Notes: a model not told the origin generated them from the letters alone. Positions 41,965 through 59,564 are shown, counted from the first letter of the stretch. The stretch: 64,000 nucleotides of DNA from a virus (IMGVR_UViG_3300042558_002764:106906-170905), one strand, 5' to 3'. Numbers and translations are program-made.

Positions 41965-41965
41965 A

Positions 41966-43677: not shown

Positions 43678-43680
43678 TAA

Positions 43681-44302: not shown

Positions 44303-44321
44303 TTAATTTTGCCGATATTTA

Positions 44322-46003: not shown

Positions 46004-46431
46004 TGAGAAATTTAATTAAAAAAATATTAAAAGAATCTACTGACCCAGATTGGGCATGGCTAGATGAGATACCACCAATTATAGATGGTTGGGATTTATA
46101 TCATAACAAATTAAAAGGTGAATCTTTTACAATAAATCTTAAATCTGAAGTTATGACTGATGATTGTGTTGATGAATACTTCCCAGATGATGTTGATTAT
46201 GAATCTGAAGTAAAAGTAATATTAGTAGAAGTGGTACCAAAAATGAGGGTAAAAACAAATGGTTGTTATACTAAAGAGGTAGAAGTATTATTATTAAAAT
46301 TTTATGAAAGTACTAATGGACATGATGGGATTAGTGACAATTTTAGTGGTGAAAAAAATGGGGAGATTGCTAATATGTGTGATAATAGATGTTGGTGGGT
46401 TTACCCTGGGTTAATAAACGTAAATTATTAA
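46003..46431 (+). CDS. Hypothetical protein, paralogous N-terminal module.
   Basis: MRNLIKKILKESTDPDWAWLDEIPP. Confidence 0.4.
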   Translation: MRNLIKKILKESTDPDWAWLDEIPPIIDGWDLYHNKLKGESFTINLKSEVMTDDCVDEYFPDDVDYESEVKVILVEVVPKMRVKTNGCYTKEVEVLLLKFYESTNGHDGISDNFSGEKNGEIANMCDNRCWWVYPGLINVNY

Positions 46432-46593
46432 AGATTTCTTAACATTAGATATTTGTCCTTTTTACTTTTATGACCTATATATTGTTATATGAAAATAATA
46501 TTATTAACACTAATAATAACAACAATCACATTTTTATTACTGACAGTCTCAAAAGACAGAAAAGAGTATTTTGATTATTACGGAAAAAAGTAA

Positions 46594-46601
46594 TATCTTT
46601 G
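46594..46601 (+). promoter_or_regulatory. -7 box TATCTTTG.
   Basis: 4 nt upstream of the ATG at 46606. Confidence 0.4.
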
Positions 46602-46605
46602 TCTT

Positions 46606-46815
46606 ATGGAAATAATTGATTATACTTGGTTCACAACATCCCAAACAGTTGGTATTGTTTTAGTTAAAGACCCCTATGATGGGTATAAAGCATATATTGG
46701 TGTGGCGAAGGGTGGTAACGAACTTGACGATGTTACCCATATTACAAAATGGGGGAGTAGTTTCCCTATCGAAGCGGCAAAAAAATTATTTACACACATA
46801 AATTTTACAAATTAA
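46606..46815 (+). CDS. Hypothetical small protein.
   Basis: ORF downstream of a -7 box. Confidence 0.4.
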   Translation: MEIIDYTWFTTSQTVGIVLVKDPYDGYKAYIGVAKGGNELDDVTHITKWGSSFPIEAAKKLFTHINFTN

Positions 46816-46837
46816 TTGACAATTTAAAAACTTTTAT

Positions 46838-46845
46838 TATCTTTG
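46838..46845 (+). promoter_or_regulatory. -7 box TATCTTTG.
   Basis: Upstream of the micro-ORF at 46875. Confidence 0.35.
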
Positions 46846-46874
46846 TAACATATTTAATTAATAAGAATAAAAAA

Positions 46875-46985
46875 ATGATAACAAATAACATACATATCAG
46901 CAATCGTAATCAGTGGTATCAGCCGTGTTTTATTAACAATGGTAAGGGTATGTTATGTGTAAATGGAAGTGAGGAAATAATTTAA
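46875..46985 (+). CDS. Micro-ORF (36 aa, MITNNIHISNRNQWYQPCFINNGKGMLCVNGSEEII) between a promoter and a terminator, upstream of tRNA array 1.
   Basis: ATG to TAA in frame. It has its own -7 box and a terminator. Confidence 0.25.
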   Translation: MITNNIHISNRNQWYQPCFINNGKGMLCVNGSEEII

Positions 46986-47009
46986 TCACAGAAGTAAATA
47001 AAAATATAA

Positions 47010-47042
47010 CAAACCCAATTCCAAAAGAGTTGGGTTTTTTGT
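47010..47042 (+). terminator. Rho-independent terminator.
   Basis: Stem ACCCAA/TTGGGT plus a T6 run. Confidence 0.6.
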
Positions 47043-47055
47043 TTATAAAAAAAAA

Positions 47056-47129
47056 CGATGTGTATATCAGTTGGTTAGATAGACACTCTGATAAGGTGTA
47101 GGTCGGAGGTTCGAGCCCTCCCACATCGA
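47056..47129 (+). tRNA. tRNA-Ile (anticodon GAT).
   Basis: Hand-folded cloverleaf. Acceptor CGATGTG/CACATCG, anticodon loop CTGATAA, T-arm GGAGG-TTCGAGC-CCTCC. Confidence 0.7.
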
Positions 47130-47150
47130 CAAAAAAGAAAAAGTTCTTTG
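47127..47150 (+). repeat. Copy 1 of the conserved motif ACAAAAAAGAAAAAGTTCTTTGA.
   Basis: Near-identical to 63976-63998. The core GTTCTTTGAT also occurs at 57223-57232. Confidence 0.5.
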
Positions 47151-47169
47151 ATGTATTGGTATTAGTAAT

Positions 47170-47242
47170 GACTCAGTAGCTCAATTGGTAGAGCTCCACA
47201 CTGTTAATGTGGCCGTTACAGGTTCAAGTCCTGTCTGAGTCG
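47170..47242 (+). tRNA. tRNA-Asn (anticodon GTT).
   Basis: Acceptor GACTCAG/CTGAGTC, anticodon loop CTGTTAA, T-loop TTCAAGT. Confidence 0.7.
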
Positions 47243-47372
47243 CTGAGGTTGATTGGGGAATGATATAACGTTAACGTGTCAGTAGTCGTGGTTATATCGG
47301 AGTTGTAACTGTCCGAGTAAAGCCAATCGTAAAAGGGGATGTCCACACAACCATCTTCCCCTTTCCTAACTT

Positions 47373-47453
47373 GGGAACTGAAAGTCGTTTGGATACGGCA
47401 GCGAAACTGTAAATTTCGTCCTCGCGGGAGTGGTTCGAGTCCACCAGGTCCCA
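47373..47453 (+). tRNA. tRNA-Tyr-like element (anticodon GTA, class II) with irregular acceptor/D-arm spacing. Possibly non-canonical or a pseudo-tRNA.
   Basis: Perfect anticodon arm CGAAA-CTGTAAA-TTTCG, variable arm, T-arm GTGG-TTCGAGT-CCAC, and acceptor GGGAACT/AGGTCCC with one mismatch. There are two extra nucleotides before the D-stem. Confidence 0.35.
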
Positions 47454-47521
47454 CAAAAAAAAATAAATGTAATATAAGTGGATTTTAACTCTGTTTGTTA
47501 TATTTATAATAAAAGAATATT

Positions 47522-47971
47522 ATGAAACAGAGAGAAGTTAAAATTACTGATGAAGAAATAAAGTTGGCATATGACAAATACGACACACTACATCAGGCAT
47601 CCGCAGAATTAAAAATGACTACTGTGTCATTATGGAGAAGGGCAAAAAAAATTGGTTTAGCCTGGAAAGATAAAAACTTTAAACCTGAACAACAAAAAAT
47701 ACCTTTAAACGAGATTATAGAAGGTAAACATCCGTACTACCAAACCTTAAAATTAAAAAAAAGGTTATTGAAAGAAGGGGTTAAAGAAAATAAGTGTGAT
47801 ATTTGCGGTATAATAGATTGGAATAATATAGAGTTATCAATGCAATTAGACCATATTGATGGTGACTCACACAACCACAAATTGGATAATTTAAGGATGG
47901 TTTGCCCTAACTGCCATTCACAAACAAACACTTATTGTGGTAAAAATAAAAAAATCAAAGCGGAAATTTGA
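47522..47971 (+). CDS. HNH homing endonuclease.
   Basis: CDICGI...HIDGDSHNH...NLRMVCPNCH is a classic HNH zinc-finger nuclease motif. Confidence 0.65.
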   Translation: MKQREVKITDEEIKLAYDKYDTLHQASAELKMTTVSLWRRAKKIGLAWKDKNFKPEQQKIPLNEIIEGKHPYYQTLKLKKRLLKEGVKENKCDICGIIDWNNIELSMQLDHIDGDSHNHKLDNLRMVCPNCHSQTNTYCGKNKKIKAEI

Positions 47972-48001
47972 AAACAACATGTCTTCCTGTATATTTTATA
48001 C

Positions 48002-48073
48002 GCGTCTTTGGTGTAATTGGTAGCACGGCTGGTTCCAACCCAGTCGGTCAGGGTTCGAGGCCTTGGGGATGTG
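48002..48073 (+). tRNA. tRNA-Trp (anticodon CCA). The acceptor stem is G-U rich.
   Basis: Anticodon arm GCTGG-TTCCAAC-CCAGT, T-arm CAGGG-TTCGAGG-CCTTG. Acceptor GCGTCTT/GGGATGT pairs with four G-U wobbles. Confidence 0.5.
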
Positions 48074-48078
48074 CAAAT

Positions 48079-48151
48079 GGTGATGTAGCTCAGTTGGTAG
48101 AGCAAAGGACTGAAAATCCTTGTGTCGAAGGTTCAATTCCTTCCATCACCA
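48079..48151 (+). tRNA. tRNA-Phe (anticodon GAA).
   Basis: Acceptor GGTGATG/CATCACC, anticodon loop CTGAAAA, T-loop TTCAATT. Confidence 0.7.
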
Positions 48152-48158
48152 CCATTAT

Positions 48159-48233
48159 AGGGTAATGGACTAATTGGCAAGTCACCACGTTTGGGACGTG
48201 GGCATCGTGAGAGTTCGAGTCTCTCTTACCCTA
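48159..48233 (+). tRNA. tRNA-Pro (anticodon TGG).
   Basis: Acceptor AGGGTAA/TTACCCT, D-stem GACT/AGTC, anticodon arm CCACG-TTTGGGA-CGTGG, T-arm GAGAG-TTCGAGT-CTCTC. Variable loop of 7 nt. Confidence 0.55.
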
Positions 48234-48241
48234 CTATACAA

Positions 48242-48314
48242 TGTCCTATGGTGTAATTGGCAACACGTCGGTTTTTGGTACCGAAGAGTCGAGGTTCGAA
48301 CCCTTGTGGGACAA
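48242..48314 (+). tRNA. tRNA-Gln (anticodon TTG).
   Basis: Acceptor TGTCCTA/TGGGACA, anticodon arm TCGGT-TTTTGGT-ACCGA, T-loop TTCGAAC. Confidence 0.65.
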
Positions 48315-48320
48315 CAATAT

Positions 48321-48392
48321 GGTGTTTGAAGCATTAAGGTGATGTACTAGTTTGTGGGACTAGGAAAGACGGGTCGGTACCGTCCTTACACC
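48321..48392 (+). tRNA. Degenerate tRNA-His-like element (anticodon GTG) with a non-canonical T-loop, GTCGGTA.
   Basis: Perfect anticodon arm CTAGT-TTGTGGG-ACTAG and T-like hairpin GACGG-GTCGGTA-CCGTC. The acceptor pairs for only 5 of 7 positions. Confidence 0.25.
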
Positions 48393-48398
48393 CAAAAA

Positions 48399-48485
48399 GG
48401 AAAGGTGGGTGAGTGGCTAAAACCAACAATCTGCTAAGTTGTCGTACCTGTAAGGGTACCGAGGGTTCGAATCCCTCCCTTTCCT
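48399..48485 (+). tRNA. tRNA-Ser (anticodon GCT), class II, with CCA encoded at 48486-48488.
   Basis: Acceptor GGAAAGG/CCTTTCC, anticodon loop CTGCTAA, variable arm GTACC..GGTAC, T-arm GAGGG-TTCGAAT-CCCTC. Confidence 0.7.
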
Positions 48486-48491
48486 CCATAT

Positions 48492-48563
48492 GTGGATGTG
48501 ATGTAACGGTTAACATGAGACTCTTATACAGTCTTCTCGGTGGTTCAACTCCACCCATCCATA
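48492..48563 (+). tRNA. tRNA-Ile (anticodon TAT, reading AUA). Alternatively Met-like if position 34 is modified.
   Basis: Acceptor GTGGATG/CATCCAT, anticodon arm AGACT-CTTATAC-AGTCT, T-arm GGTGG-TTCAACT-CCACC. Confidence 0.55.
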
Positions 48564-48568
48564 CTATT

Positions 48569-48642
48569 ACACTCTTAGCTCAATGGATTAGAGCACAACG
48601 TTACGGACGTTGGGGTTGGTGGTTCGAGTCCATCAGAGTGTA
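48569..48642 (+). tRNA. tRNA-Arg (anticodon ACG).
   Basis: Acceptor ACACTCT/AGAGTGT, anticodon arm CAACG-TTACGGA-CGTTG, T-loop TTCGAGT. Confidence 0.65.
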
Positions 48643-48651
48643 CAATAATAA

Positions 48652-48722
48652 GGCACCATGCCCGAGTGGTTAGGGGTCGGTCTGCAAAACCGCTTACATT
48701 GGTTCGAACCCAATTGGTGCCT
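48652..48722 (+). tRNA. tRNA-Cys (anticodon GCA).
   Basis: Acceptor GGCACCA/TGGTGCC, anticodon loop CTGCAAA, T-arm ATTGG-TTCGAAC-CCAAT. Confidence 0.6.
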
Positions 48723-48805
48723 CTATCTTTAATTTCTTTTATATTCAATATAGGCCCAAACACCAACAAATATTGGGGTTAGTATAGCAATAACTATTTC
48801 TGTAT

Positions 48806-51013
48806 TCATCGCATAATTGTTAAATGTCCTGTTATCATTTTACGTGAGTCATCATACTCAGACCCATACATTATTCTCCAAACATAAATCCCATCAAAAC
48901 ACATTTTATTATTATAAGTACCATCCCAACCAACGGTATGATTGTATGATTCAAAAATTGTTTCACCCCATCTATTGAATACCAATAAATTATAATCATA
49001 GACATCAAACCCATCAGTAAATATTGGTAACCAAATATTGTTGAAAGCATCACCATCGGGGGTAAATGTATTAGGTATATAAATTAATTCTTGTGGACAT
49101 TCTTGTATTGCTATATTAGCTTGTTCTTCATTAGAAACACAACCATTAACCGTTTGGGAAACGCTAATTGTATAAAAACCAACATTATTCCAAACATAAG
49201 GTAAACTATTATCTTGTATTGTATCACCTTCAACAACCCAATCAAACAACCCAGATAAAGATGAATAAGCTGTATAGATTCTAAAAATACTATCACCTTC
49301 ACAAAGTTGGTTAAATTCATATGAAGGTGTTACAGATGTTATGATTGGTTGTGGGTTTACAATAACGTTGATTGTTGTATCAAATGGGCAATTACTTTGT
49401 GTATATGTATAAGTTACATCATTGTTTGTTATGATACCTTGTTGTGGGCAAAATTCATCAGTCTGAACCCCATTGACTAAGAAAGTACCATTTAAAGGTG
49501 AACCCACTAAATCTACACAACCATCATAATCACAAAAAGGACCAATAGGGTCTATTGTAGGGTTTATGTTTAAAATAAATGTAGTGAAGTAAGAGGTATC
49601 ACTATTACAACCAATAGGACTAGTAGAATAAACACTTATAGAGTCTTGATATAAACCACTAGGTTCTAATGACCAATCCGTTGTTATATTATCAGTACCT
49701 TGACCATTTATTATTTGTGGTGTTGTAGACCATATGTAGTTGTAACCAACACCCATAGAAGGTACACTATAACTTTCTGATGTTGATAAATAACATACCG
49801 TATCAGGACCACTAATAGGTGTCATTATTATTTGTGCTGGGTTAGTGAGTGTTGCATTACCTGTTACGGTACAACCTATACCGTCTGTAATTAAAAAACT
49901 ATAATTACCATAACAAAGGTTAGTGGGGTTAAAAGTTGTTTGTAGAGTATTCCAAGAAATAGTAGTGACACCATTGGTTCCGTTAGGGATTACATTAATA
50001 CTACCATCACAATAGTTATAACAAGTTGGGTCAATAAAAGTAATTGTAGGTTGTGGTAAGTTAGGTGGACCAGGTTGTACAAACACCGTATCAGGTCCTG
50101 GACCGGCAATACTATTACAAGTATTCCATCCAACATTACAAGAAGGATATACTAGTTGACAAGTATAATTAGCTCCTTGTACAGGTGGTGTAACCGTAAT
50201 GGACGCACCAACCCCAATTGGATTTGGGTTACCTACAATATACCATGTTGGTACAGGTAAAACAGTTGGTCCACTTGGAGTGTATCGGTACGCATCATTA
50301 TTTGCTGTCCATTGTGTGGAATTCCTACCTGGTACAGTTATCGCCACGGTTCCTGTGGTATTATGTAATCCTTGAACCGCGGTACCTCCCGCCCAAGCTA
50401 GACAGTTTGGTTTTGATTGAATATAATTTTCTATTACGTTTGTTGATTCATAAATCACTGTATGAAATGTCCCCAGTAAATTTGTACATGAAAACATAGG
50501 GACACCAACCCAACTAACAACTAATTTTCTACAAGGTGCTGTACCTTGAACTTGGTACCTAATTTGCCCACCTAAACCTGGGTGCCAATCTTGCCAAGGA
50601 CCCATGACACAATTTTTTGGTACTGTACCCGCACCATTAGGTATTGTTGCTGAAGTAAATGTTGTTGGTTGTGCCGGTGAAAAAGAAATCCAACCGTTAG
50701 AACCAACCCAAAATTGATTGTATGTTTGTCCAAAGAAACAAAATGTAAACCCAATATTAAAAGGACCTTGTTGTGAATCATCCGACATAAATAATTGTGT
50801 ACCAGTATTTGTTTGTGTTACATAAGGAATATTTGTAACACCGTAGTTTGTTGTTTGATTTGGATTTGAACCTGGTCCACATTGACTAAAATCGGCAGTT
50901 AATGTTGTTGACCCAACACCACAAGGTAGTATTTGGTCTGGTCCTAAATAAGGACAGTATTGTGAATAGGTCACAAAAGAAATTAGTATAAAAAGGTATT
51001 TAATTAAGTTCAT
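48806..51013 (-). CDS. Secreted Cys-rich surface protein with a T9SS type-B C-terminal sorting domain (gliding-motility-associated CTD).
   Basis: N-terminal signal peptide MNLIKYLFILISFVTYSQ. The C-terminus FTPDGDAFNN...LLVFNRWGETIF...GWDG...GIYVWRI matches the T9SS CTD consensus. Confidence 0.65.
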   Translation of the reverse strand: MNLIKYLFILISFVTYSQYCPYLGPDQILPCGVGSTTLTADFSQCGPGSNPNQTTNYGVTNIPYVTQTNTGTQLFMSDDSQQGPFNIGFTFCFFGQTYNQFWVGSNGWISFSPAQPTTFTSATIPNGAGTVPKNCVMGPWQDWHPGLGGQIRYQVQGTAPCRKLVVSWVGVPMFSCTNLLGTFHTVIYESTNVIENYIQSKPNCLAWAGGTAVQGLHNTTGTVAITVPGRNSTQWTANNDAYRYTPSGPTVLPVPTWYIVGNPNPIGVGASITVTPPVQGANYTCQLVYPSCNVGWNTCNSIAGPGPDTVFVQPGPPNLPQPTITFIDPTCYNYCDGSINVIPNGTNGVTTISWNTLQTTFNPTNLCYGNYSFLITDGIGCTVTGNATLTNPAQIIMTPISGPDTVCYLSTSESYSVPSMGVGYNYIWSTTPQIINGQGTDNITTDWSLEPSGLYQDSISVYSTSPIGCNSDTSYFTTFILNINPTIDPIGPFCDYDGCVDLVGSPLNGTFLVNGVQTDEFCPQQGIITNNDVTYTYTQSNCPFDTTINVIVNPQPIITSVTPSYEFNQLCEGDSIFRIYTAYSSLSGLFDWVVEGDTIQDNSLPYVWNNVGFYTISVSQTVNGCVSNEEQANIAIQECPQELIYIPNTFTPDGDAFNNIWLPIFTDGFDVYDYNLLVFNRWGETIFESYNHTVGWDGTYNNKMCFDGIYVWRIMYGSEYDDSRKMITGHLTIMR

Positions 51014-51156
51014 TTTTTTTTTATTTATAAATATAATATTAAGACGTATTTAAATGTAAATAGAAGGAACACTTATCCCAAAAGGTGGGATTGGAGAATA
51101 TCTAGTACTTTTGGCTTATTTTTTAAATTTACGATTAAATAGAATATTTATATTAT

Positions 51157-51906
51157 ATGAAGTTAATTAGAGAATTCGATGATTTTAGTTGGACTAATAT
51201 GGGTACACTTAATCCGTTTATGAGTGATGACCCACTTGTTGTTGTATGGTTAGATAAATCTGCCACTGAATCAGAGATTAATAAATTATATGATATGCTT
51301 TTGGAAGTTAATATAGAAATTAGTACATCAAAGTCAGATTTTGTAAAAAGTTTATTAACATATTCTAGAAATGGGTCTGCATATGTTAAATCTTACATAG
51401 CTCAAAATGGTGAAAAAAGAGCTGGGTATGGTGATACAAAAGCTTTATTTGATGAACATAAATATTGGAAAGCTATGGAAGATTTAGACGGTAAACCATA
51501 TATAGAATATAAATTAGGTGATATCTTTAAAGATAGATTAAATGAGTCTGAAGAGTTAAATTGGATTATAGAAAGTAACCCATCATTTAGAAACAAGATA
51601 ATTATTTTTGAACCACTGATTATTGAGGATGAGTATAATATTGTTATAGATGGTTTATTAGAATTTGATGAGGACCTTTATACCTATAGTGGTAATTTAG
51701 AAGAATTAAGACCTTTCACTTCTTATGATTATTTACACCATTTAGTTATAGGTTTAAATGGTGTAGTAGCTTATGGTGGGGCCAATGAACATAACAACGA
51801 AGACTGGGGTGGTTTTATGGATAACGTAGAAAATTACATAGGTAATTATTATAAAAATTTTAACAACCCAGAAGTTATTGATGGAAGAAAATATTTTAAT
51901 CTTTAA
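51157..51906 (+). CDS. Hypothetical protein.
   Basis: ORF divergent from the T9SS-cargo gene. Confidence 0.45.
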   Translation: MKLIREFDDFSWTNMGTLNPFMSDDPLVVVWLDKSATESEINKLYDMLLEVNIEISTSKSDFVKSLLTYSRNGSAYVKSYIAQNGEKRAGYGDTKALFDEHKYWKAMEDLDGKPYIEYKLGDIFKDRLNESEELNWIIESNPSFRNKIIIFEPLIIEDEYNIVIDGLLEFDEDLYTYSGNLEELRPFTSYDYLHHLVIGLNGVVAYGGANEHNNEDWGGFMDNVENYIGNYYKNFNNPEVIDGRKYFNL

Positions 51907-51930
51907 TAACTCCAATTAATACTTATTGAT

Positions 51931-53856
51931 ATGGATAAAAATTTTTACATTAATAAATTAAATAAAACTTTAATTTCACAAACACATAACCCTCTTTTTT
52001 ATAAAGGGGATATAGTAGAAGGTTCTAAAATTCTAACTAAAGAAGTTGTAGACTCAATTAATGTTGATAGATGTTCTATATGGTTATACAACAAAAATAA
52101 AACATCTATTGTTTGCCAACAATTATATGTTAAATCTGAAAATATGTGGTATGATGGTTTAGAAATCTTTGAAAAGGATTTTGGACCGTATTTCGAAGAA
52201 TTAATAAAGAACCCAATAATAATAGCTAATGATGCTGAAAAACATCCAGCAACATCTTGTTTTACTGATGGTTATTTAAAACCACTGGGTATTAAATCTA
52301 TGTTAGATGTACCTATCATTTATTTTGGGGAAACTATTGGTGTTATATGTATTGAAAGTTTTACATTACGTGAATGGGATTCTTTTGAGGTTGATTTTAC
52401 TCAATTATTATCTTCTTTATACACTTTTGCTTATTCAATAAAAGAAACAAACAATTTAAATAAAAAAATAGAAGAAACAGAAAAATTTATTGACGTATCG
52501 ACAATTATATCTACTGCTGATAAAAGAGGTAAAATTACATATGTTAATAAAAAATTTGAGGATGTTTCTGGGTGGTCTTTGGATGAGGTAGTTGGTAAAG
52601 ACCATGTTATTGTTAATTCGGGATTACAACCTGATGGATATTGGGGTAAAATGTATGAAACGGTAATGAAAGGTGATGTATGGAATGACGTTGTTACCAA
52701 TAAAGGAAAATCAGGAGAATTATATTACGTTGATACTTTTATTAGAGCAATTTTTGATACCGATGGTAAATTGGATGGATTTGCTTCAATAAGACAAGAT
52801 GTTACAGAACTTAAAAAAAAGGAAGTTGAAATTCGCAATAGAATGAACGCGATAAATAAATCTAACGCAGTTATTGAGTTTGATTTAGAAGGAAACATCA
52901 TTTTTGCTAATAATTTGTTTTTAGAAACTATGGGATATTCTTTACAGGATGAAGTAGTTGGAAAACACCATAGAATTTTTATAGATGAGGAATACTCAAA
53001 AAGTGAAGAATACTCTCTTTTTTGGGAAAAATTAAATGAAGGGGTGTTATTTACCGGTGAAATTACTAGAATTAAAAAAGACGGTTCTTTAGTGTATCTA
53101 CAAGCAACATACAATCCAGTTATCGGTTTAGATGGTAAGGTTTATCGTGTTATGAAAATCGCGACAGATATCACCAATTCCTACGAACAAAAGAAAGAAA
53201 TTGAAAAGAAAAACACTTACCTAGAACATGCGGCTAAAATATTAAGACACGATATGCATTCAGGTATTAATACTTATATGCCAAGAGGATTAAGTTCTTT
53301 AGAAAGAAGATTAACCCCCGAAGATATTAAAACTTTAAAAATTGAGGCCCCAATTAAAATGATTAAAGAGGGTTTAAAACATTCCCAAAAAGTATATAAA
53401 GGGGTTTACGAATTTACAAATCTTGTAAAGAAAGATGTTGTTTTAAATAAAACGGAATGTAATTTAAAAGATATACTTGAGGATTATTTATCAGCGACAG
53501 CATATAGTAGTCAAGTTATTATTGATGAGTTACCAACGATAGAAGTTAATGAACCATTATTCTGTACCGCAGTCGATAATTTAATTCGTAATGGGTTAAA
53601 GTATAATGATAGTAATACAAAATTTGTTAAAATATATATGGAAGATGGTAATCTAATTATACAAGACAACGGTAGAGGGATTACACAAAAAGATTTTATT
53701 CATTTATCCCAACCATATACCAGAAAAGAAGGCCAAAAAGAATCTGGAACTGGTCTAGGGCTTAATATATGTGTAGCTATTTTAGAAGAACATAAATTTA
53801 ATATTTCGTGTGAGAAAAATGACATAGGGACAAAAATGAAAATTGAACTAAAATGA
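51931..53856 (+). CDS. Cytoplasmic sensor histidine kinase (GAF, PAS, PAS, DHp, HATPase_c).
   Basis: GAF-like N-terminus and two PAS-like segments. Divergent H-box ILRHDMHSG. N-box NLIRNGLKYN, G1 DNGRGI, G2 GTGLGLNI. Confidence 0.65.
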   Translation: MDKNFYINKLNKTLISQTHNPLFYKGDIVEGSKILTKEVVDSINVDRCSIWLYNKNKTSIVCQQLYVKSENMWYDGLEIFEKDFGPYFEELIKNPIIIANDAEKHPATSCFTDGYLKPLGIKSMLDVPIIYFGETIGVICIESFTLREWDSFEVDFTQLLSSLYTFAYSIKETNNLNKKIEETEKFIDVSTIISTADKRGKITYVNKKFEDVSGWSLDEVVGKDHVIVNSGLQPDGYWGKMYETVMKGDVWNDVVTNKGKSGELYYVDTFIRAIFDTDGKLDGFASIRQDVTELKKKEVEIRNRMNAINKSNAVIEFDLEGNIIFANNLFLETMGYSLQDEVVGKHHRIFIDEEYSKSEEYSLFWEKLNEGVLFTGEITRIKKDGSLVYLQATYNPVIGLDGKVYRVMKIATDITNSYEQKKEIEKKNTYLEHAAKILRHDMHSGINTYMPRGLSSLERRLTPEDIKTLKIEAPIKMIKEGLKHSQKVYKGVYEFTNLVKKDVVLNKTECNLKDILEDYLSATAYSSQVIIDELPTIEVNEPLFCTAVDNLIRNGLKYNDSNTKFVKIYMEDGNLIIQDNGRGITQKDFIHLSQPYTRKEGQKESGTGLGLNICVAILEEHKFNISCEKNDIGTKMKIELK

Positions 53857-54467
53857 TAAAACTAAAAAATTTATTAACCATATTTTTCATAAGTATGGTA
53901 AGTATAGTGTATTCACAACCAACCTACCCTATCCAGACACAATTAAAAGGTGATTCTGTGGTTATTCTTACAAAAAAACAATCTGATGATATTAATTCAC
54001 TAATTGAGAATCAAAAAATTAGAATACAAAAATATAAAACAGAAATAAAATTAGTTAATGATACTAACACGTTATTAAATAACGATATTAAAATAAAAGA
54101 TAGTGTTATTAACCAATTGGATAGTTTGTTAACCGTCCAAAACAATTATTACGATAGTTTAATTTCTAAAATAGATACGTTAGAGAATTGGATTTTATCG
54201 TCGTCGATAGATAATGGGTACCTATATTATTCTTGGCAAGACTCAACAGTTAAAGTTATTGATTTAAGTTTGTATATGTTAGTATCGCATAGAGGAAGTG
54301 GTAATTATAGTTTAATTACAAGAGGTGATGTTACTAATATATATTATTGGAAACAAATAAATCTACTTAAAGAAGAAAGTCCTGAGATTGGTTGGGAATT
54401 AAATATATCCCCAAAATATAAACCAAGAATAGTATTATTCCCATATAAATTAACCCCAAAATTATGA
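53853..54467 (+). CDS. Secreted or periplasmic protein with a signal peptide.
   Basis: N-terminal MIKLKNLLTIFFISMVSIVYSQ. Lies between the two kinase genes. Confidence 0.45.
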   Translation: MIKLKNLLTIFFISMVSIVYSQPTYPIQTQLKGDSVVILTKKQSDDINSLIENQKIRIQKYKTEIKLVNDTNTLLNNDIKIKDSVINQLDSLLTVQNNYYDSLISKIDTLENWILSSSIDNGYLYYSWQDSTVKVIDLSLYMLVSHRGSGNYSLITRGDVTNIYYWKQINLLKEESPEIGWELNISPKYKPRIVLFPYKLTPKL

Positions 54468-55867
54468 TAAAAAATATTTTAATAACAATAATGTTTTTGG
54501 GTTTTTTTACTTCTTTAAATGTAAATTCACAGACTGATAATAACCCCAAAAAAACAGAGATTGAACCTACATGTCCTAGTGATAGTCGTATAACTAGTTT
54601 AATTAAAAAATTAAATTACGAACCAAATAAAAAATTAACTAAATACCAATCAAGCTTATGTCAAGAAATTGGTATCTCTTTTTATAATAAAGGTATGTAT
54701 GATGAGTCAGATTGGTATTTAGATAAGGTTAGTACCTATATTGATGTTGTTGATTTAAAACCTGAAAAAGTTTTTGACACACCTAAAGAAGAACCCGTAC
54801 AAGAGTTAAGTGACTCAGAATTATCTAGTATTAAAGCCGACCAAAAATTTTTAGATGACCTACCAAAATCATACGATAATTTATCTAAAAAAGATATAAA
54901 AAAAATTGCTGATGAGATAGAGTCAAAACTCCAAAAACTATTAAAAGAAAAAAAAGAATTATTAAAAAATAAAGCTAGTCAAGAAGTTATCAGTTCTAAA
55001 ACAAGTACTATACAAATATTAGGTAAAGAAAAAAATATCATTAATCTTAGTGTTAAAAATGATGATTTAGTTACCGATAAAAAAACCTTAAAAAAATATT
55101 TATGGTGGTCCACAATTGTTCTTTCTGTTTTGGTTTTAGGTATTATTGTTTTATTACAAAGAAAAACAATTAAAGTCCAAGACATAGAAATCGAAAACCA
55201 ATTAAAAGACATTAACAAGAAAAACACTTACCTTGAATATGCGGCTAGAATAATTAGACACGACATGCATTCAGGTATTAACACCTATATACCAAGAGGG
55301 TTATCGTCATTAGAAAAAAGAATTTCAATTGAGGAAATGAATAACTTAAAAATTACACCCTCAATTAAAATGATAAAAGATGGTTTGGCACACACACAAA
55401 AAGTATATAAAAGTGTTTATGAGTTTACAAACCTTGTGAAAAATACTGTAGTTTTAGATAGAAATATGGTTGATATAAAAGAATCTTTATTAAAATACTT
55501 AACAAATACATCATATAAAAATCAGGTAGAAATTAGTGAATTAGTTACACTAAATGTAAATGAAACTCTTTTTTGGAACGCTATTGATAATTTAATTAAA
55601 AATGGGTTAAAATATAATAGTAGTGAAAATAAAGAAATTAAAATTTACATGGATAATAATGATTTAATTATTGAAGATAATGGTGTTGGATTTTCACAAA
55701 AAGAGTTCGAAAGAACAACAGGTGAATATTTAAATAAAAAGAGTAATTCCGAAGTTGGTTTAGGTTTAGGTATAACCAAAACAATTTTAGAAGAACATGG
55801 TTTTAGTATGATGTGTGAAAAAATTAACACTGGTACAAAAATAACGGTTAAATTAAATAAAAATTAA
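54464..55867 (+). CDS. Membrane sensor histidine kinase (periplasmic domain, one transmembrane helix, DHp, HATPase_c), paralog of the kinase core at 51931.
   Basis: Signal peptide, then transmembrane segment YLWWSTIVLSVLVLGIIVLL. Kinase core about 65% identical to the ORF at 51931 (IIRHDMHSGINTY, NLIKNGLKYN, DNGVGF, GLGLGI). Confidence 0.65.
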   Translation: MIKNILITIMFLGFFTSLNVNSQTDNNPKKTEIEPTCPSDSRITSLIKKLNYEPNKKLTKYQSSLCQEIGISFYNKGMYDESDWYLDKVSTYIDVVDLKPEKVFDTPKEEPVQELSDSELSSIKADQKFLDDLPKSYDNLSKKDIKKIADEIESKLQKLLKEKKELLKNKASQEVISSKTSTIQILGKEKNIINLSVKNDDLVTDKKTLKKYLWWSTIVLSVLVLGIIVLLQRKTIKVQDIEIENQLKDINKKNTYLEYAARIIRHDMHSGINTYIPRGLSSLEKRISIEEMNNLKITPSIKMIKDGLAHTQKVYKSVYEFTNLVKNTVVLDRNMVDIKESLLKYLTNTSYKNQVEISELVTLNVNETLFWNAIDNLIKNGLKYNSSENKEIKIYMDNNDLIIEDNGVGFSQKEFERTTGEYLNKKSNSEVGLGLGITKTILEEHGFSMMCEKINTGTKITVKLNKN

Positions 55868-55874
55868 AAAAAAA

Positions 55875-56312
55875 ATGATTGATTCTATATTATTAGTTGA
55901 TGACGAGGATTTATTCCATTTAGTATTTGAGGATGCGTGTTCCTTATTAGATATAAGTTTGTCTTTAAACGCGTTAAACAGTTCTGACGAAGCAGCAAAA
56001 CTATTCCAAAAATGGTTCCAAAGTGGTAATGAAGACAATAAACCAGAATGTGTTTTTGTTGACTTAAATATTATTGGTAGTTCTTTTGATGGTATTGAGT
56101 TAATTAGAAAAATAAACTTTGAATATGGTAACCATGTGGTTATTGGTATAATTTCATCGTCTAATGAACCAGATGAACAAGCTAAAGCATTACAAGCTGG
56201 AGCACAGTTTTGGATTATTAAATCAGACGATATAGAACCAAGACTAGAAGAATTTAGAAAAGATTACGAAGGTTATAAAAATAGAACCGCACCATTTAAA
56301 GTTTACAAATGA
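55875..56312 (+). CDS. Stand-alone response-regulator receiver domain (CheY-like).
   Basis: LLVDDE acidic pocket, phospho-acceptor VFVDLNI, conserved S/T and K positions. No output domain. Confidence 0.6.
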   Translation: MIDSILLVDDEDLFHLVFEDACSLLDISLSLNALNSSDEAAKLFQKWFQSGNEDNKPECVFVDLNIIGSSFDGIELIRKINFEYGNHVVIGIISSSNEPDEQAKALQAGAQFWIIKSDDIEPRLEEFRKDYEGYKNRTAPFKVYK

Positions 56313-56986
56313 TTAAAATAGAAAGTTTTACTAAAAAAAGTTTAATAGATTTATATAAAGAAAAAAATGTAGGTCTTGAGGGTAATATCACAAAATTAAT
56401 TGATTCTGAGGATGATGAAGAATTTAAAGATTATTTAAAAGATTGTGAATTAAGAGATACCGAAAAAAGGAAGAAGCGTCTTGATATGACAAAAAAAATA
56501 CAAAAACAAAATCAAGAACTATCTAATTTAAATAATGAAAACGAAAGAATTCTAGAAGAATTACAGGAAACTTTAAAAGACGTTGAGGATTCCAAGTTGA
56601 CGTATGAGGTTCAGAATAAGGAACTTAATGAGTGGAAAGAAGATAACCTTAGATTAACTGAAGAGTTAAAAAATGAAATGGCTAAATCTGAAAAGGCTAG
56701 AATAGATGCGGAAAAAGCTAAAGATATGGCCGAAAACGATTTAGATTTATTACAAAAAAGAACTCAAAATGAACTAATCTCCACCATTGTTAGAGTTGCT
56801 CTATGGATAATCATGGGTGTGGGTTTTGTAACAACTGGTGTTTATGTCTTCACATTATTAATGGGCAAAGACACTCAAGTTATTAGTGCTACTTGGTCTA
56901 ACATATTTGGTATTCTATTAACAAATGCATTTTCTATTGTAGGTACCATTATGGGTATAAAATACGCAACAGAAAAAAAAGAATAA
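56309..56986 (+). CDS. Coiled-coil protein with C-terminal transmembrane helices.
   Basis: Heptad-rich E/K/L segment, then two transmembrane helices (LWIIMGVGFVTTGVYVF and IFGILLTNAFSIVGTIMGI). Confidence 0.45.
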   Translation: MIKIESFTKKSLIDLYKEKNVGLEGNITKLIDSEDDEEFKDYLKDCELRDTEKRKKRLDMTKKIQKQNQELSNLNNENERILEELQETLKDVEDSKLTYEVQNKELNEWKEDNLRLTEELKNEMAKSEKARIDAEKAKDMAENDLDLLQKRTQNELISTIVRVALWIIMGVGFVTTGVYVFTLLMGKDTQVISATWSNIFGILLTNAFSIVGTIMGIKYATEKKE

Positions 56987-57015
56987 AAATAGTTTGACAA
57001 TTAATAAACTTTTAC

Positions 57016-57023
57016 TATATTTG
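57016..57023 (+). promoter_or_regulatory. -7 box TATATTTG.
   Basis: Upstream of the micro-ORF at 57066. Confidence 0.35.
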
Positions 57024-57065
57024 TACCATATTTAATTAATACGAACAAAAATTTTTATAAATTCA

Positions 57066-57167
57066 ATGAAAACAACAATGACATACAAACAAGGGACCGT
57101 TAAAACGGTTGATGGGAAAGTGGATTCACTTTTCTACGGACATGGGTTGTCATACTGGAGTTGTTGA
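57066..57167 (+). CDS. Micro-ORF (33 aa, MKTTMTYKQGTVKTVDGKVDSLFYGHGLSYWSC) between a promoter and a terminator, upstream of tRNA array 2.
   Basis: ATG to TGA in frame. Same architecture as the micro-ORF at 46875. Confidence 0.25.
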   Translation: MKTTMTYKQGTVKTVDGKVDSLFYGHGLSYWSC

Positions 57168-57191
57168 TTTGAATTTACTCTATATATAGAA

Positions 57192-57223
57192 TAACCCTGG
57201 GTCCAAAAGATTCAGGGTTTTTT
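57192..57223 (+). terminator. Rho-independent terminator.
   Basis: Stem AACCCTG/CAGGGTT plus a T5 run. Confidence 0.6.
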
Positions 57224-57250
57224 GTTCTTTGATATATCGGTTTAAAAAAA

Positions 57251-57340
57251 GGAAGGGTGGCAGAGTTGGTCTATTGCATCTGATTTGAAATCAGAAGTAC
57301 CTTTGAAAGGGTACCGTGGGTTCGAATCCTACCTCTTCCT
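57251..57340 (+). tRNA. tRNA-Ser (anticodon TGA), class II.
   Basis: Acceptor GGAAGGG/CTCTTCC with one G-U, anticodon arm TCTGA-TTTGAAA-TCAGA, variable arm GTACC..GGTAC, T-loop TTCGAAT. Confidence 0.65.
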
Positions 57341-57347
57341 CATAAAT

Positions 57348-57419
57348 GGTCCATTGGTGTAGTGGCCAACATACATCCCTGTCACGGATGTGCCGCGAGT
57401 TCGATTCTCGCATGGACCG
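57348..57419 (+). tRNA. tRNA-Asp (anticodon GTC).
   Basis: Acceptor GGTCCAT/ATGGACC, anticodon arm CATCC-CTGTCAC-GGATG, T-arm GCGAG-TTCGATT-CTCGC. Confidence 0.7.
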
Positions 57420-57460
57420 CAACTAACCATAAATCCTAGTAACCCCTAGGTTGGTTAAAC

Positions 57461-57533
57461 AGTTCCTTAGCTCAGCTGGGAGAGCAACTCGCTTACATCG
57501 AGAAGGTCACAGGTTCGAACCCTGTAGGAACTA
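57461..57533 (+). tRNA. tRNA-Val (anticodon TAC).
   Basis: Acceptor AGTTCCT/AGGAACT, anticodon loop CTTACAT, T-arm ACAGG-TTCGAAC-CCTGT. Confidence 0.65.
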
Positions 57534-57542
57534 CAATAAATT

Positions 57543-57617
57543 GCCTCATTAGCTCAGCTGGCTTAGAGCGTCTGATTTGTACTCAGAAGGCCGTGGGTTC
57601 GATTCCTACATGAGGCT
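57543..57617 (+). tRNA. tRNA-Thr (anticodon TGT).
   Basis: Acceptor GCCTCAT/ATGAGGC, anticodon arm TCTGA-TTTGTAC-TCAGA, T-loop TTCGATT. Confidence 0.7.
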
Positions 57618-57679
57618 CAATTAATAACAAACAAATAAAAACGTCAGATTATGGAAAGTGGCAAGTATGGCAAACACAA

Positions 57680-57751
57680 TCCCTCGTAGCAAACAAGTGT
57701 AGGCAACGGACTTTTAATCCGTGGGGCTGGGAGCGTTACCCGGCGGGGGAA
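57680..57751 (+). tRNA. Degenerate tRNA-Lys-like element (anticodon-arm TTT), a pseudo-tRNA candidate.
   Basis: Acceptor TCCCTCG/CGGGGGA, perfect anticodon-like arm ACGGA-CTTTTAA-TCCGT, and T-like hairpin CTGGG-AGCGTTA-CCCGG. No D-stem and a non-canonical T-loop. Confidence 0.2.
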
Positions 57752-57759
57752 CAAAACAC

Positions 57760-57829
57760 ACCGAGGCTTAGTGGTAAAGAACTATCTCTCATAAGGATGG
57801 TCAAGTGGGTTCAATTCCCATACTCGGTA
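57760..57829 (+). tRNA. tRNA-Met-like (anticodon CAT) with a short, irregular D-arm.
   Basis: Acceptor ACCGAGG/ACTCGGT with 6 of 7 pairs, anticodon arm TATCT-CTCATAA-GGATG, T-arm GTGGG-TTCAATT-CCCAT. Confidence 0.4.
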
Positions 57830-57837
57830 CATTATAT

Positions 57838-57908
57838 TGCGGCAAGGTGTAATTGGTTGCATGGGAGTCTCATAAACTTCAGGGGTGGTTCGAGTCCACA
57901 GCACGCTA
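57838..57908 (+). tRNA. Second CAT-anticodon tRNA-like element with a canonical D-arm and T-arm but an acceptor stem that does not pair.
   Basis: D-arm GTGT-AATTGGTT-GCAT, anticodon arm GGAGT-CTCATAA-ACTTC, T-loop TTCGAGT. 5' TGCGGCA and 3' GCACGCT are not complementary. Confidence 0.3.
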
Positions 57909-57913
57909 CTAAT

Positions 57914-57988
57914 GGGGATATAGTTTAATTGGCTAAAACATCTGATTTGCATTCAGAAGATGTCTCGGTTCGATTCCGAGTATCTCCA
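57914..57988 (+). tRNA. tRNA-Ala (anticodon TGC).
   Basis: Acceptor GGGGATA/TATCTCC, anticodon arm TCTGA-TTTGCAT-TCAGA, T-arm CTCGG-TTCGATT-CCGAG. Confidence 0.65.
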
Positions 57989-58185
57989 CAATAAAATAAC
58001 AAAAGAAAAAGAAAGAAATTAATGAAGATAGTGTTAACAGGTAAATTAGAATCACATAGAGAAATTTTTAGAGGAGAAAGAGAAAAAAATAAATTGATTA
58101 AAAGAATAAAAAAATTTATTTTTAAAAGAAAAAACGCTTAATAGAACAAAGTACAAGTTCAGGGTGGGGTGCGGTTCCCACAAAT

Positions 58186-58259
58186 GCGGGTGTAGCTCAA
58201 TTGACTAGAGTACTAGCCTTCCAAGCTGGGAGTTGCGGGTTTGAATCCCGCCACCCGCT
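58186..58259 (+). tRNA. tRNA-Gly (anticodon TCC), with a T-loop C56 to T variant and CCA encoded.
   Basis: Acceptor GCGGGTG/CACCCGC, anticodon loop CTTCCAA, T-arm GCGGG-TTTGAAT-CCCGC, then T and CCA. Confidence 0.6.
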
Positions 58260-58263
58260 CCAT

Positions 58264-58346
58264 ACGTCAGTGGCGGAATTGGTAGACGCGTTGGTTTTAG
58301 GAACCAATATCGTTAAGATGTGGGGGTTCGACTCCCCCCTGACGTA
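58264..58346 (+). tRNA. tRNA-Leu (anticodon TAG), class II.
   Basis: Acceptor ACGTCAG/CTGACGT, D-loop GAATTGGTAGA, anticodon arm TTGGT-TTTAGGA-ACCAA, long variable arm, T-arm GGGGG-TTCGACT-CCCCC. Confidence 0.7.
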
Positions 58347-58376
58347 CTTTTATTTTGCCAATTAAACAATAACCCT

Positions 58377-58384
58377 TATATTTG
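58377..58384 (+). promoter_or_regulatory. -7 box TATATTTG.
   Basis: 5 nt upstream of the ATG at 58390. Confidence 0.45.
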
Positions 58385-58389
58385 TAATT

Positions 58390-59085
58390 ATGAAAAAATT
58401 AACCTTTATTAGTGACACACACACCAAACACGAGAAACTTAACGGTTTTCTTCCTGGTGGTGATATGTTAATCTGTGCTGGTGATATCACTAGTAGAGGT
58501 TATAAAACTGAAATTGAAAATTTTCTTAAGTGGTTTGATAAAATTGATAACTATGACCACAAAATTTTCATAGCAGGTAATCACGACTTTGGTTTCCAAG
58601 ACCAACCTAATGAAACTAAAGGTTTGTTAACTGGTTATAAAACAGTTGAATATTTACAAGACGAACTTTTATTGGTTGGTGATGAGGATTATGACGATAT
58701 GGTTAAAGTTTGGGGTACTCCTTGGCAACCTGAATTTCATAATTGGGCATTTAACTTACCAAGAGGACAAGCTTTAAAAGAGAAGTGGGATATGATAACA
58801 GTTGGTACTGACATTCTTATCACTCACGGACCACCATTTGGCAAATTGGATTACGTAAAATACCCAAATCAAAATGTTGGTTGTGAAGAACTAATGAAAC
58901 GAGTTGAAGTAATCAAACCAAAAATTCACGTATTTGGACACATCCACGAAGGTTATGGTTATGTGTTTGATGGAAATACTCACTACATTAACGCAGCTGT
59001 GTTAAATGGACGATATGAGTTCCGCAATAAACCTGTGAATGTTTTATGGGATAAAAACACAAATCATTTGGAATTTGTTGATTAA
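58390..59085 (+). CDS. Calcineurin-like metallophosphoesterase.
   Basis: Motifs ISDTH, CAGDIT, AGNHDF, THGPP and GHIHEG. Confidence 0.65.
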   Translation: MKKLTFISDTHTKHEKLNGFLPGGDMLICAGDITSRGYKTEIENFLKWFDKIDNYDHKIFIAGNHDFGFQDQPNETKGLLTGYKTVEYLQDELLLVGDEDYDDMVKVWGTPWQPEFHNWAFNLPRGQALKEKWDMITVGTDILITHGPPFGKLDYVKYPNQNVGCEELMKRVEVIKPKIHVFGHIHEGYGYVFDGNTHYINAAVLNGRYEFRNKPVNVLWDKNTNHLEFVD

Positions 59086-59102: not shown

Positions 59103-59564
59103 ATGAATAAAGTAAAAATATATTTGGATGACATAAGAACTCCTAATGACAAAGATTGGTTGGTTGTTAGGAGTTTTTATGAATTTGTAGACTTAATAAA
59201 TAAAGTTGGTTTGAATAACATCGAATTAATTTCATTAGACCATGACTTGGGTGATACTGCTATGAATGAGTATTATAACAATGTTTCACCTAACTACAAA
59301 TTAGATTATGAGAACATAGAAGAAAAAACTGGTTACGACGCGGTTAAATGGTTAGTTAATTTGTTTTATTCTTTGAATGAACATAGAATCAACATGAGTA
59401 GGTCTGAGAAAAAAAGGGATAAAAATTTTTATTTCCCTAAAGTTGTGGTTCATTCAGCTAACCCAATAGGTTCAGCTAATATCATGGGTTATATCAATAA
59501 CTTTTTAATGAATGAAGGTAAATCACAAGATTGTATAAGAGTTAAAATTGAGTATTATGTATGA
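59103..59564 (+). CDS. Hypothetical protein.
   Basis: ORF. Confidence 0.45.
   Translation: MNKVKIYLDDIRTPNDKDWLVVRSFYEFVDLINKVGLNNIELISLDHDLGDTAMNEYYNNVSPNYKLDYENIEEKTGYDAVKWLVNLFYSLNEHRINMSRSEKKRDKNFYFPKVVVHSANPIGSANIMGYINNFLMNEGKSQDCIRVKIEYYV

Follow-up and report, generated by a model that had tools for sequence, protein, structure and literature searches.

We analysed a 64,000-nt stretch of viral DNA (IMGVR_UViG_3300042558_002764:106906-170905), referred to below as the window, in which two arrays of tRNA genes enclose a block of protein-coding genes and each array is preceded by a cassette composed of a promoter, a small open reading frame (ORF) and an intrinsic terminator. The window has ~30% GC and nearly all of its genes are on the + strand. 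ARAGORN detected 19 tRNA genes, all on the + strand and divided between two arrays with no anticodon in common; seven ORFs lie between the arrays. A preliminary description of this DNA had proposed both the bracketing of a gene island by two tRNA arrays and the similar cassette ahead of each array, and both were confirmed. The elements of the two tRNA operons are as follows (segments 1, 2 and 3 are pairing elements of the leader RNA):

46816-46845, + strand: promoter of tRNA operon 1, TTGACA-N16-TATCTTTG, with the -7 box TAnnTTTG at 46838-46845 and a predicted transcription start site near 46850
46875-46985, + strand: leader ORF 1, 36 codons, MITNNIHISNRNQWYQPCFI..., with segment 1 at ~46885-46893 (ATAACATAC) and segment 2 at 46946-46956 (GGGTATGTTAT)
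47006-47042, + strand: segment 3 and intrinsic terminator of unit 1, with segment 3 at 47006-47016 (ATAACAAACCC) and the stem at 47011-47037, then a T-run
47056-48723, + strand: tRNA array 1, 11 tRNAs by ARAGORN, in the order Ile-GAT, Asn, Tyr, (HNH gene, 47522-47971), Trp, Phe, Pro, Gln, (His-like sequence, ~48320-48395), Ser-GCT, Ile-TAT, Arg-ACG, Cys
56994-57023, + strand: promoter of tRNA operon 2, TTGACA-N16-TATATTTG, with the -7 box at 57016-57023
57066-57167, + strand: leader ORF 2, 33 codons, MKTTMTYKQGTVKTVDGKVDSL..., with internal hairpins that have covariation support
57193-57224, + strand: terminator of unit 2, hairpin 57193-57219 and T-run, with the motif GTTCTTTGA (57224-57232) directly after it and tRNA-Ser from 57251
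57251-58347, + strand: tRNA array 2, 8 tRNAs by ARAGORN, in the order Ser-TGA, Asp, Val, Thr, Lys, (two tRNA-like sequences with a CAT anticodon, 57760-57829 and ~57840-57910), Ala, Gly, Leu-TAG

The tRNA-like sequences shown in brackets were not called by ARAGORN. The one in array 1 is a divergent His-like sequence with a GTG anticodon loop and an odd T-loop. The two in array 2 are Met- or Ile2-like, and the first of them (57760-57829) scores above the Rfam tRNA threshold (30.3 bits).

The two cassettes are homologous over their full length (77% column identity; nhmmer E = 2e-9), and the 48-nt promoter block matched only cassettes 1 and 2 in the 64 kb, with 0 matches expected. In the 12-kb region no terminator-like hairpin ranked above those at 47011-47037 and 57193-57219, and a T-run follows both; the T-run of unit 1 ends 14 nt before tRNA-Ile. 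TAnnTTTG is the consensus of the Bacteroidota sigma-A -7 box at positions -12 to -5, and for flavobacteria both this box and signs of leader-peptide attenuation upstream of amino-acid operons are reported (PMC9723704). A relaxed scan of viral contigs for the promoter pattern gave mostly chance matches, 2 of the 116 being true cassettes. Assignment of the leaders to tRNA-like sequences or known non-coding RNAs was rejected for lack of an Rfam match: a scan of 46000-59000 at E <= 1 returned tRNA matches only, with no family for the leaders and no T-box.

Relatives of the window (given below by L numbers) were collected from IMG/VR, metagenomes and assemblies, with the downstream phosphoesterase, the upstream genes, the promoter pattern and a type IX secretion system (T9SS) protein as anchors. 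A near-identity search among GenBank phages gave no useful match. The ORF is kept in every complete copy of the cassette, with 22-47 codons, an ATG or GTG at a conserved position and an A-rich upstream context (29/29 complete unique leaders). Its tail is in different frames among the copies, so the leader ORF encodes no conserved protein, and the conserved block GGGTATGTTATG, which is read in different frames, is a nucleotide-level feature.

The codons of the leader ORFs match the tRNAs encoded downstream. In leader 1, 20 of 21 codons are decodable by array-1 tRNAs, and codons 2-22 sample 11/11 of the leader's own tRNAs. In leader 2, array-2 tRNAs can decode 19 of 21 codons and 7 of the 8 own tRNAs are sampled (Fisher test on the table 20, 1 / 2, 19: p = 1.7e-8). 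The match is confined to the frame of the ORF, the other two reading frames being without signal, and none of 200,000 random draws of 21 codons covered all 11 array-1 tRNAs. Background usage of the codons read by an array's own tRNAs (own-set codons) is 36% for the array-1 set and 56% for the array-2 set. The preliminary description had listed both ORFs as Cys-containing micro-ORFs; the ORFs are present, but they are not mere Cys-containing peptides and look like regulatory leader peptides.

The correspondence extends to the level of isoacceptors. Leaders of type 1 use only AGY for Ser (Ser-GCT), only CGT for Arg (Arg-ACG) and both ATA and ATY for Ile (Ile-TAT and Ile-GAT), and leaders of type 2 use only TCR for Ser (tRNA-Ser-TGA) and only CTN for Leu. 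The codons CAT (His) and ATG (Met) in the leaders have counterparts in the divergent His-like and CAT-anticodon sequences of the arrays. Own-set codons are concentrated in the first part of the ORF: their share in codons 2-20 vs the ORF tails is 91% vs 27% for type 1 and 80% vs 31% for type 2. Other leader types follow the same rule. The L032/L162 leader contains AGC, TCG, CAT, AAT, CGC and AGA ahead of an array of His, Ser-GCT, Ser-TGA, Asn, Arg-ACG and Arg-TCT (6/6 sampled), and the L158/L165 leader (MLNLTTYQPKQQTQGGKP...), rich in T/Q/P/K/G, precedes Pro, Pro, Gln, Gln, Thr, Thr, Gly, Gly, Lys, Lys, Lys. Own-set fractions in the five leader types were 0.95, 0.89, 0.47, 0.47 and 0.68, against backgrounds of 0.36, 0.56, 0.18, 0.18 and 0.29, respectively, and the cross-matrix of leader types and arrays is diagonal-dominant. 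The loci collected contained no unrelated arrays of at least 4 tRNAs, so this comparison covers related phages. We conclude that the leader ORF is under coding constraint, though no conserved protein is encoded.

The leader RNA has a conserved architecture around these sampler codons. Every copy folds as a long-range helix between segments 1 and 2 (1:2) that encloses the sampler, plus a strong terminator, -12.5 to -20 kcal/mol, whose U-run ends 14-27 nt ahead of the first tRNA in units 1 and 2. In the 1:2 example pair ATAACATAC/GTATGTTAT, C-G to U-A changes are found in L013. Segment 2 is also complementary to segment 3, the 5' arm of the terminator, and varies with that arm between subtypes (GGGUAUGUUAU/AUAACAAACCC, GAUUGGGGU/ACCCCAAUU, CUUAGGGU/ACCCUAAG, GGACCUGGG/CCCUGGGUCC, GGUCGG/CCGACC and GGAGAUGG/CCCGUCUC). 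Mutually exclusive 1:2, 2:3 and 3:4 pairings were found in all copies. In folding of truncated transcripts, the 2:3 helix forms when segment 1 is masked and segment 4 is not yet made, at 2.5-4.5 standard deviations below shuffles.

Column-based covariation was set aside for 1:2, 2:3 and the terminator, since the register of the MAFFT columns changes from one subtype to another and the 2:3 helices do not occupy homologous positions; compensatory changes were formally counted only where the alignment columns are in register, and an alignment-free comparison of cognate and non-cognate segments was used elsewhere. The duplex energy of cognate vs non-cognate segments was -16.3 vs -11.7 kcal/mol for 2:3 (p = 3e-6) and -16.4 vs -10.6 kcal/mol for 3:4 (p = 6e-8). 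In the two hairpins inside the leader-2 ORF, compensatory changes affect 9 pairs; shuffles gave 4.7 ± 1.3, and 1 of 500 reached so high a count. Pairing is 84.6% there and 36-55% if the partners are shifted against each other. The interval between stop codon and terminator CCC is 28.5 ± 1.9 nt in the 29 unique leaders, despite ORFs of 22-47 codons.

A third leader unit lies near the end of the window:

63719-63885, + strand: third leader unit, with promoter-like TTGAC...TATATTTA, ORF 63758-63826 (MKNTNIISLLERLERFSLMEMV, ...SLLERLERFSLMEMV) and terminator 63848-63883

Its ORF is rich in TTA, GAR, AGA and ATG. The array predicted for it, drawn from the third arrays of relatives (Leu-TAA, Glu, Arg-TCT and Met), was confirmed just beyond the window in L181, which is DNA of the same phage (3468-4493 and 5844-5918). 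Own-set codons account for 10/21 codons of leader 3 vs 18.5% in the background, and that set occurs in leaders 1 and 2 at 0/21 and 1/21. The Rfam Phe_leader family matched 63811-63882 weakly and below threshold (22.6 bits; gathering score 55). A further hairpin (63937-63977) is located between the terminator of leader 3 and array 3. The third array is also separated from the GTTCTTTGA motif by a GC-richer stretch of ~370 nt that is non-coding (L181 3750-4120, L025 8690-9118, L009 16215-16600, L003 12690-13080). It is well conserved between L181 and L025, and showed no Rfam match, no excess folding stability (z = -0.18) and no consensus structure.

The motif that follows the terminator of unit 2 recurs in the window and in relatives:

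47143-47151, 57224-57232 and 63988-63996, + strand: GTTCTTTGA motif, marking the 5' side of stable-RNA genes
47143, 57224 and 63988 in the window, 2397 in L008, 2158 in L013, 6103 in L010, 13478 in L019 and 9736 in L169: AAAAAGTTCTTTGAcATATTG sites

Across the phage family AAAAAGTTCTTTGAcATATTG stands 5-25 nt upstream of tRNAs, third arrays and tmRNA genes, and GTTCTTTGA is found ahead of leader-less arrays as well. The preliminary description had such a motif in front of the tRNAs of both arrays. This holds for array 2, with the motif at 57224 before the first tRNA; in array 1 the first tRNA precedes the motif, which is at 47143. At two loci, in L019 and L169, the motif begins at the predicted +1 of canonical promoters, which suggests that GTTCTTTGA is transcribed rather than a promoter; it is probably a transcribed leader or processing element. 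In relatives a tmRNA gene was seen ~4 kb upstream of array 1 (L008/L009 2411-2779; L010 6117-6485; L013/L014 2172-2575), with two different tag peptides; ARAGORN found no tmRNA in the window.

As predicted from sequence, the cassettes contain the four structural components of a leader-peptide attenuator, namely an ORF, regulatory codons, an intrinsic terminator and alternative pairings. We consider it probable that the window derives from a large ~30% GC phage of a Bacteroidota host with its tRNA genes in separate operons, that the small ORF and terminator ahead of each operon constitute a leader-peptide attenuator, and that the 8.3-kb island between the arrays occupies a variable slot outside this device. 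A T9SS sorting domain encoded in the island points to the Bacteroidota host.

By analogy with the trp and his attenuators, operons 1 and 2 would each be transcribed from a host-type promoter into a leader with an A/U-rich 5' part, the sampler ORF and segments that pair as 1:2, 2:3 or 3:4. The first ~20 codons would act as the sampler, with about one isoacceptor-specific codon per downstream tRNA. When the sampled aminoacyl-tRNAs are plentiful, the ribosome would pass segment 2 and reach the stop codon ~28 nt before the terminator; with no stall, 1:2 would re-form or the ribosome would sit between segments 2 and 3, so that 2:3 would be prevented, 3:4 would form and transcription would end. When any sampled tRNA is scarce, the ribosome would stall in the sampler and keep segment 1 off segment 2, which would then capture segment 3 first; the terminator would fail and RNA polymerase would read into the tRNA array. 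The phage tRNAs would in this way be made on demand. The island occupies the stretch without a promoter that runs from the end of operon 1 to the start of the operon 2 promoter, a slot repeatedly filled, emptied and remodelled. We are evenly balanced on the broader proposal that large Bacteroidota phages monitor decoding codon by codon and transcribe each tRNA operon only when a tRNA of its own array runs short, for example through host tRNA decay, an anticodon-nuclease defence or starvation.

Several observations weigh against the attenuator. The codon match is imperfect: leader 2 has no Ala codon despite tRNA-Ala, and one Thr codon occurs in leader 1. A full leader is kept ahead of a decayed array in several relatives (L002, L003, L025, L169), and a substitution test of whether variant codons stay in the own set was significant in 1 of 3 subgroups (p = 5e-5). 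The support for 1:2 is weak (-15.3 vs -13.1 kcal/mol, cognate vs non-cognate; p = 0.015), segment 1 being nearly invariant, and 2:3 pairing is weakest in leader 2 of the window itself (-11.1 kcal/mol), for which 8 non-cognate partners gave better scores. For array 3 there is a separate canonical promoter (TACATTTG, ~63918) downstream of the leader 3 terminator, ~480 nt separate that terminator from the first tRNA, and a search for leaders ahead of the third arrays of relatives found none. GTTCTTTGA lies downstream of the terminators, and if the motif were a promoter the attenuator would be bypassed. Finally, equilibrium folding keeps the terminator dominant at every simulated ribosome position, and the switch would therefore have to be kinetic, as in trp. 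Classical attenuators likewise keep the terminator dominant at equilibrium; for this reason the equilibrium stalling simulation was dropped as a test and the folding of truncated transcripts was used instead.

The strength of the terminators at equilibrium would also be expected if the cassettes were stand-alone genes for micro-proteins or small RNAs, with the tRNAs expressed by incidental read-through or from another promoter such as GTTCTTTGA. The location of this motif after the terminators and before tmRNA genes and leader-less arrays, the separate promoter of array 3 and the co-varying hairpins inside the ORF are compatible with such genes. We nevertheless think this unlikely. It leaves unexplained the in-frame, isoacceptor-level codon match in five independent leader types, the tracking of the terminator 5' arm by segment 2 and the fixed distance from stop codon to terminator. 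The frame-shifted peptide tails argue against a conserved micro-protein, no canonical -7 box was found between terminator and tRNA in units 1 and 2, and the +1 position of GTTCTTTGA in L019 and L169 suggests a transcribed element.

A leader that senses the same codons could also work with a different logic: smooth translation of the sampler might be needed for read-through, or the leader might act via RNA stability or precursor processing. Either sign of regulation would agree with the codon match taken by itself, the geometry of the ribosome comes from modelling, and the constant stop-to-terminator distance fits any ribosome-dependent mechanism. We judge such a logic quite unlikely, as the stop codon lies ~28 nt upstream of the terminator CCC, from where a terminating ribosome does not reach and melt the hairpin, and the arrangement of the 1:2, 2:3 and 3:4 helices, in which segments 1 and 2 enclose the sampler, is the one known from classical starvation-induced attenuators.

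The preliminary description suggested that insertion of the island had split or duplicated one ancestral tRNA locus, tRNA loci being classic insertion hot-spots; in such a model the island is a discrete foreign element, and the upstream cassette may be the part that was duplicated. The island contains the following genes, of which the two-component module covers 51931-56986:

48806-51013, - strand: T9SS-cargo gene, 735 aa, PKD-like and CHU_C C-terminal sorting domain, the only minus-strand gene here
51157-51906, + strand: ORF249, 249 aa, function unassigned, not in L183; its C-terminal domain has homologs elsewhere in relatives
51931-53856, + strand: HK1, histidine kinase (HK) with GAF-PAS-PAS domains, two-component module
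53853-54467, + strand: 204-aa ORF, two-component module
54464-55867, + strand: HK2, membrane (transmembrane, TM) histidine kinase, two-component module
55875-56312, + strand: REC-only protein, a receiver without output domain
56309-56986, + strand: 225-aa coiled-coil/TM ORF, two-component module

In several relatives (L013/L014, L035, L152, L159) the arrays are adjacent, with the same tRNA order as in the window and 287-290 bp from tRNA-Cys to tRNA-Ser-TGA. The contiguous variants that an insertion calls for thus exist, and the homology of the two cassettes, together with the opposite strand and higher GC of the T9SS gene, could be read in the same sense. The parallel cassettes, in contrast, were not produced by a split or duplication: the Cys-Ser gap of the island-less relatives is exactly cassette 2 (promoter, ORF, hairpin and GTTCTTTGA), and the leaders differ, each fitting its own array. 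Because cassette 2 is already in this gap, the cassettes are ancestral parts of two operons rather than by-products of insertion.

A discrete inserted island found no support either. No terminal inverted or direct repeats were detected at the island ends, and no att-type repeats derived from a tRNA 3' end. When every ORF of the island was scanned against Pfam and PHROG, no integrase, recombinase or transposase was found, in agreement with the preliminary description, but an HNH homing-endonuclease gene (47522-47971; phrog_10822, PHROG E = 7e-31) is present within array 1, between tRNA-Tyr and tRNA-Trp. This gene is missing in L024 (Tyr-Trp gap of 87 nt) and in the close relative L183, and is therefore a recent, lineage-specific insertion within a tRNA operon. 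In composition all seven island genes fall within the range of the genome, with a GC3 of 0.17-0.21 vs 0.215 ± 0.036 and synonymous-usage z-scores of -0.9 to +1.5. Second codon positions account for the whole GC excess of the T9SS gene, and the orientation of this gene explains why the GC skew is flat at 48-51 kb. The components of the island occur separately in relatives, and its ends differ in L183. This relative is collinear with 38143-56986 of the window at 77-97% nucleotide identity, lacks 50988-52453 (ORF249 and the GAF-encoding part of HK1), and after the 225-aa ORF carries three other protein genes in place of cassette 2 and array 2. Taken together, these results make the split or duplication by a foreign island very improbable.

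Since relatives exist with adjacent arrays, the space between the arrays is a variable slot, a recurrent site of gene gain and replacement. Its size is 0, 0.5, 2.6, 6 or 8.3 kb depending on the lineage (8.3 kb in the window). It contains a single 124-aa ORF in L006/L008/L009, a 696-aa protein and an M15 peptidase in L161, and ferritin, the T9SS gene (- strand), HK, REC and the 225-aa ORF in L033; the window has its ferritin homolog downstream of array 2 instead. The fillers of L008, L161 and window/L033 are unrelated, so the slot was filled independently several times, whatever its ancestral state. In the lineage of the window the content of the slot may have been either gained or retained. 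The island is ordinary variable cargo, a set of the phage family's own accessory genes in a plastic slot between operons, and not a discrete element. Turnover of the slot likely proceeds by recombination between related phages rather than by site-specific insertion. Gaps between autonomous tRNA operons are in this sense safe harbours where accessory genes accumulate, and bracketing by similar cassettes is therefore no evidence of an insertion event.

Although the cassettes are composites of promoter and stem-loop, three within 17 kb, that flank variable blocks in a plastic region, and PeSLs are described in T4-type phages (PMC2839356, PMC4122927), it is hardly credible that they are PeSL-like mobile cassettes which mainly mediate recombination or shuffling of the genes between them, because the copies are always ahead of tRNA arrays and do not flank individual variable ORFs, a conserved ORF lies inside them with ~190 nt from promoter to hairpin, recombination of cassette 1 with cassette 2 would remove array 1 together with the island, unlike in the island-less relatives, and the left border of the slot is tRNA-Cys with no cassette.

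Among the island genes, the T9SS-cargo protein has >1,300 homologs, many of ~735 aa at 60-100% identity, on phage-like contigs up to ~300 kb. An identical protein is encoded on a 252-kb contig, which suggests that the window comes from a jumbo phage. Around the homologs examined at 61-82% identity the gene neighbourhood is a different one, phage-like and free of tRNA arrays. A host origin of this gene was rejected, homologs at 61-96% identity all being in phage-like contexts. HK1 and HK2 have paralogous kinase cores (53194-53452 vs 55205-55463, 78% nucleotide identity), which form the only long repeat in the island. In L007 the two-component module is inverted and tRNA-free. HK1 of L183 has no GAF domain, which indicates that sensor domains are being swapped.

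Outside the island, a protein with a cREC_REC (cyclic-phosphate processing receiver) domain and a ferritin-like protein are encoded downstream of array 2, at 59103-59564 and 60994-61614. Proteins that adjoin the tRNA region (window 44627-46431; L161 3291-5381) have in common repeated acidic D-F-D-W / E-W-E-W modules with no Pfam match, and may represent a fast-evolving repeat protein family of these phages.

Why phages carry tRNAs, and at what point they need them, has been debated for decades; among the roles proposed are codon compensation, substitution for host tRNAs that have been degraded and escape from defences that target tRNAs (e.g. PMC10264068). If the attenuator reading is true, the phage treats the decoding capacity for the codons of its arrays as a regulated variable, and the codon list of the leader would co-evolve with the content of the array in a self-tuning circuit of tRNA supply. 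A short ORF with codons that mirror the downstream tRNAs would provide an annotation signature for such leaders. Our literature search, with subscription journals outside its reach, yielded no account of tRNA arrays preceded by a leader peptide or an attenuator. The cassettes would then be the first attenuator known to regulate tRNA genes, and leader-peptide attenuation would be extended to stable-RNA genes, to a many-codon sensor and to phages of Bacteroidota.

The region as a whole can be compared with several known systems. As in tRNA-associated integrative genomic islands, accessory genes adjoin tRNA genes; unlike those islands, it has no integrase, att repeats, compositional difference or fixed ends. 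The tRNA region of phage T4 consists of 8 tRNAs, two small stable RNAs, optional ORFs and the homing endonuclease SegB. Clustered phage tRNAs interrupted by optional ORFs and a homing-endonuclease gene are common to both, but here the arrays are larger and split into separately led operons; to our knowledge, no leader-peptide attenuator has been described for T4. The PeSL cassettes and hyperplastic regions of T4-type phages (PMC2839356, PMC4122927) offer a parallel in the repeated promoter and hairpin and in the turnover of accessory genes without integrases. PeSLs are compact, with many copies that flank individual variable ORFs. The cassettes described here, in contrast, are leaders of tRNA operons in which a conserved ORF of ~100 nt lies between promoter and hairpin; the 64 kb contain only three of them, and a tRNA array directly follows each one.

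T-box riboswitches couple tRNA status to terminator read-through by a choice between antiterminator and terminator, as is proposed here. They bind one uncharged tRNA directly via a specifier codon and the T-box sequence, with no translation, whereas our cassettes have a conserved ORF and would sample many tRNAs; no specifier loop or T-box sequence (Rfam RF00230) was matched in 46000-59000.

The closest resemblance is to the trp, his, thr, leu, ilv and pheST attenuators of Proteobacteria, with a promoter, a short leader ORF enriched in regulatory codons, and 1:2 anti-antiterminator, 2:3 antiterminator and 3:4 intrinsic terminator helices just upstream of the regulated genes. By this analogy, the supply of charged tRNA would be read via the speed of the ribosome in both cases. 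In the trp/his type, one or two codons are repeated and the sampler is only in segment 1, whereas the cassettes have about one codon for each of 4-12 tRNA species, at the isoacceptor level, in a sampler located between segments 1 and 2. Here the system is phage-encoded and belongs to Bacteroidota, and a genome carries two or three paralogues of it, every one tuned to the array that it precedes. The putative attenuators form a variant apart from the described families, because the regulated genes are tRNA arrays and not genes of amino-acid biosynthesis, transport or aminoacyl-tRNA synthetases.

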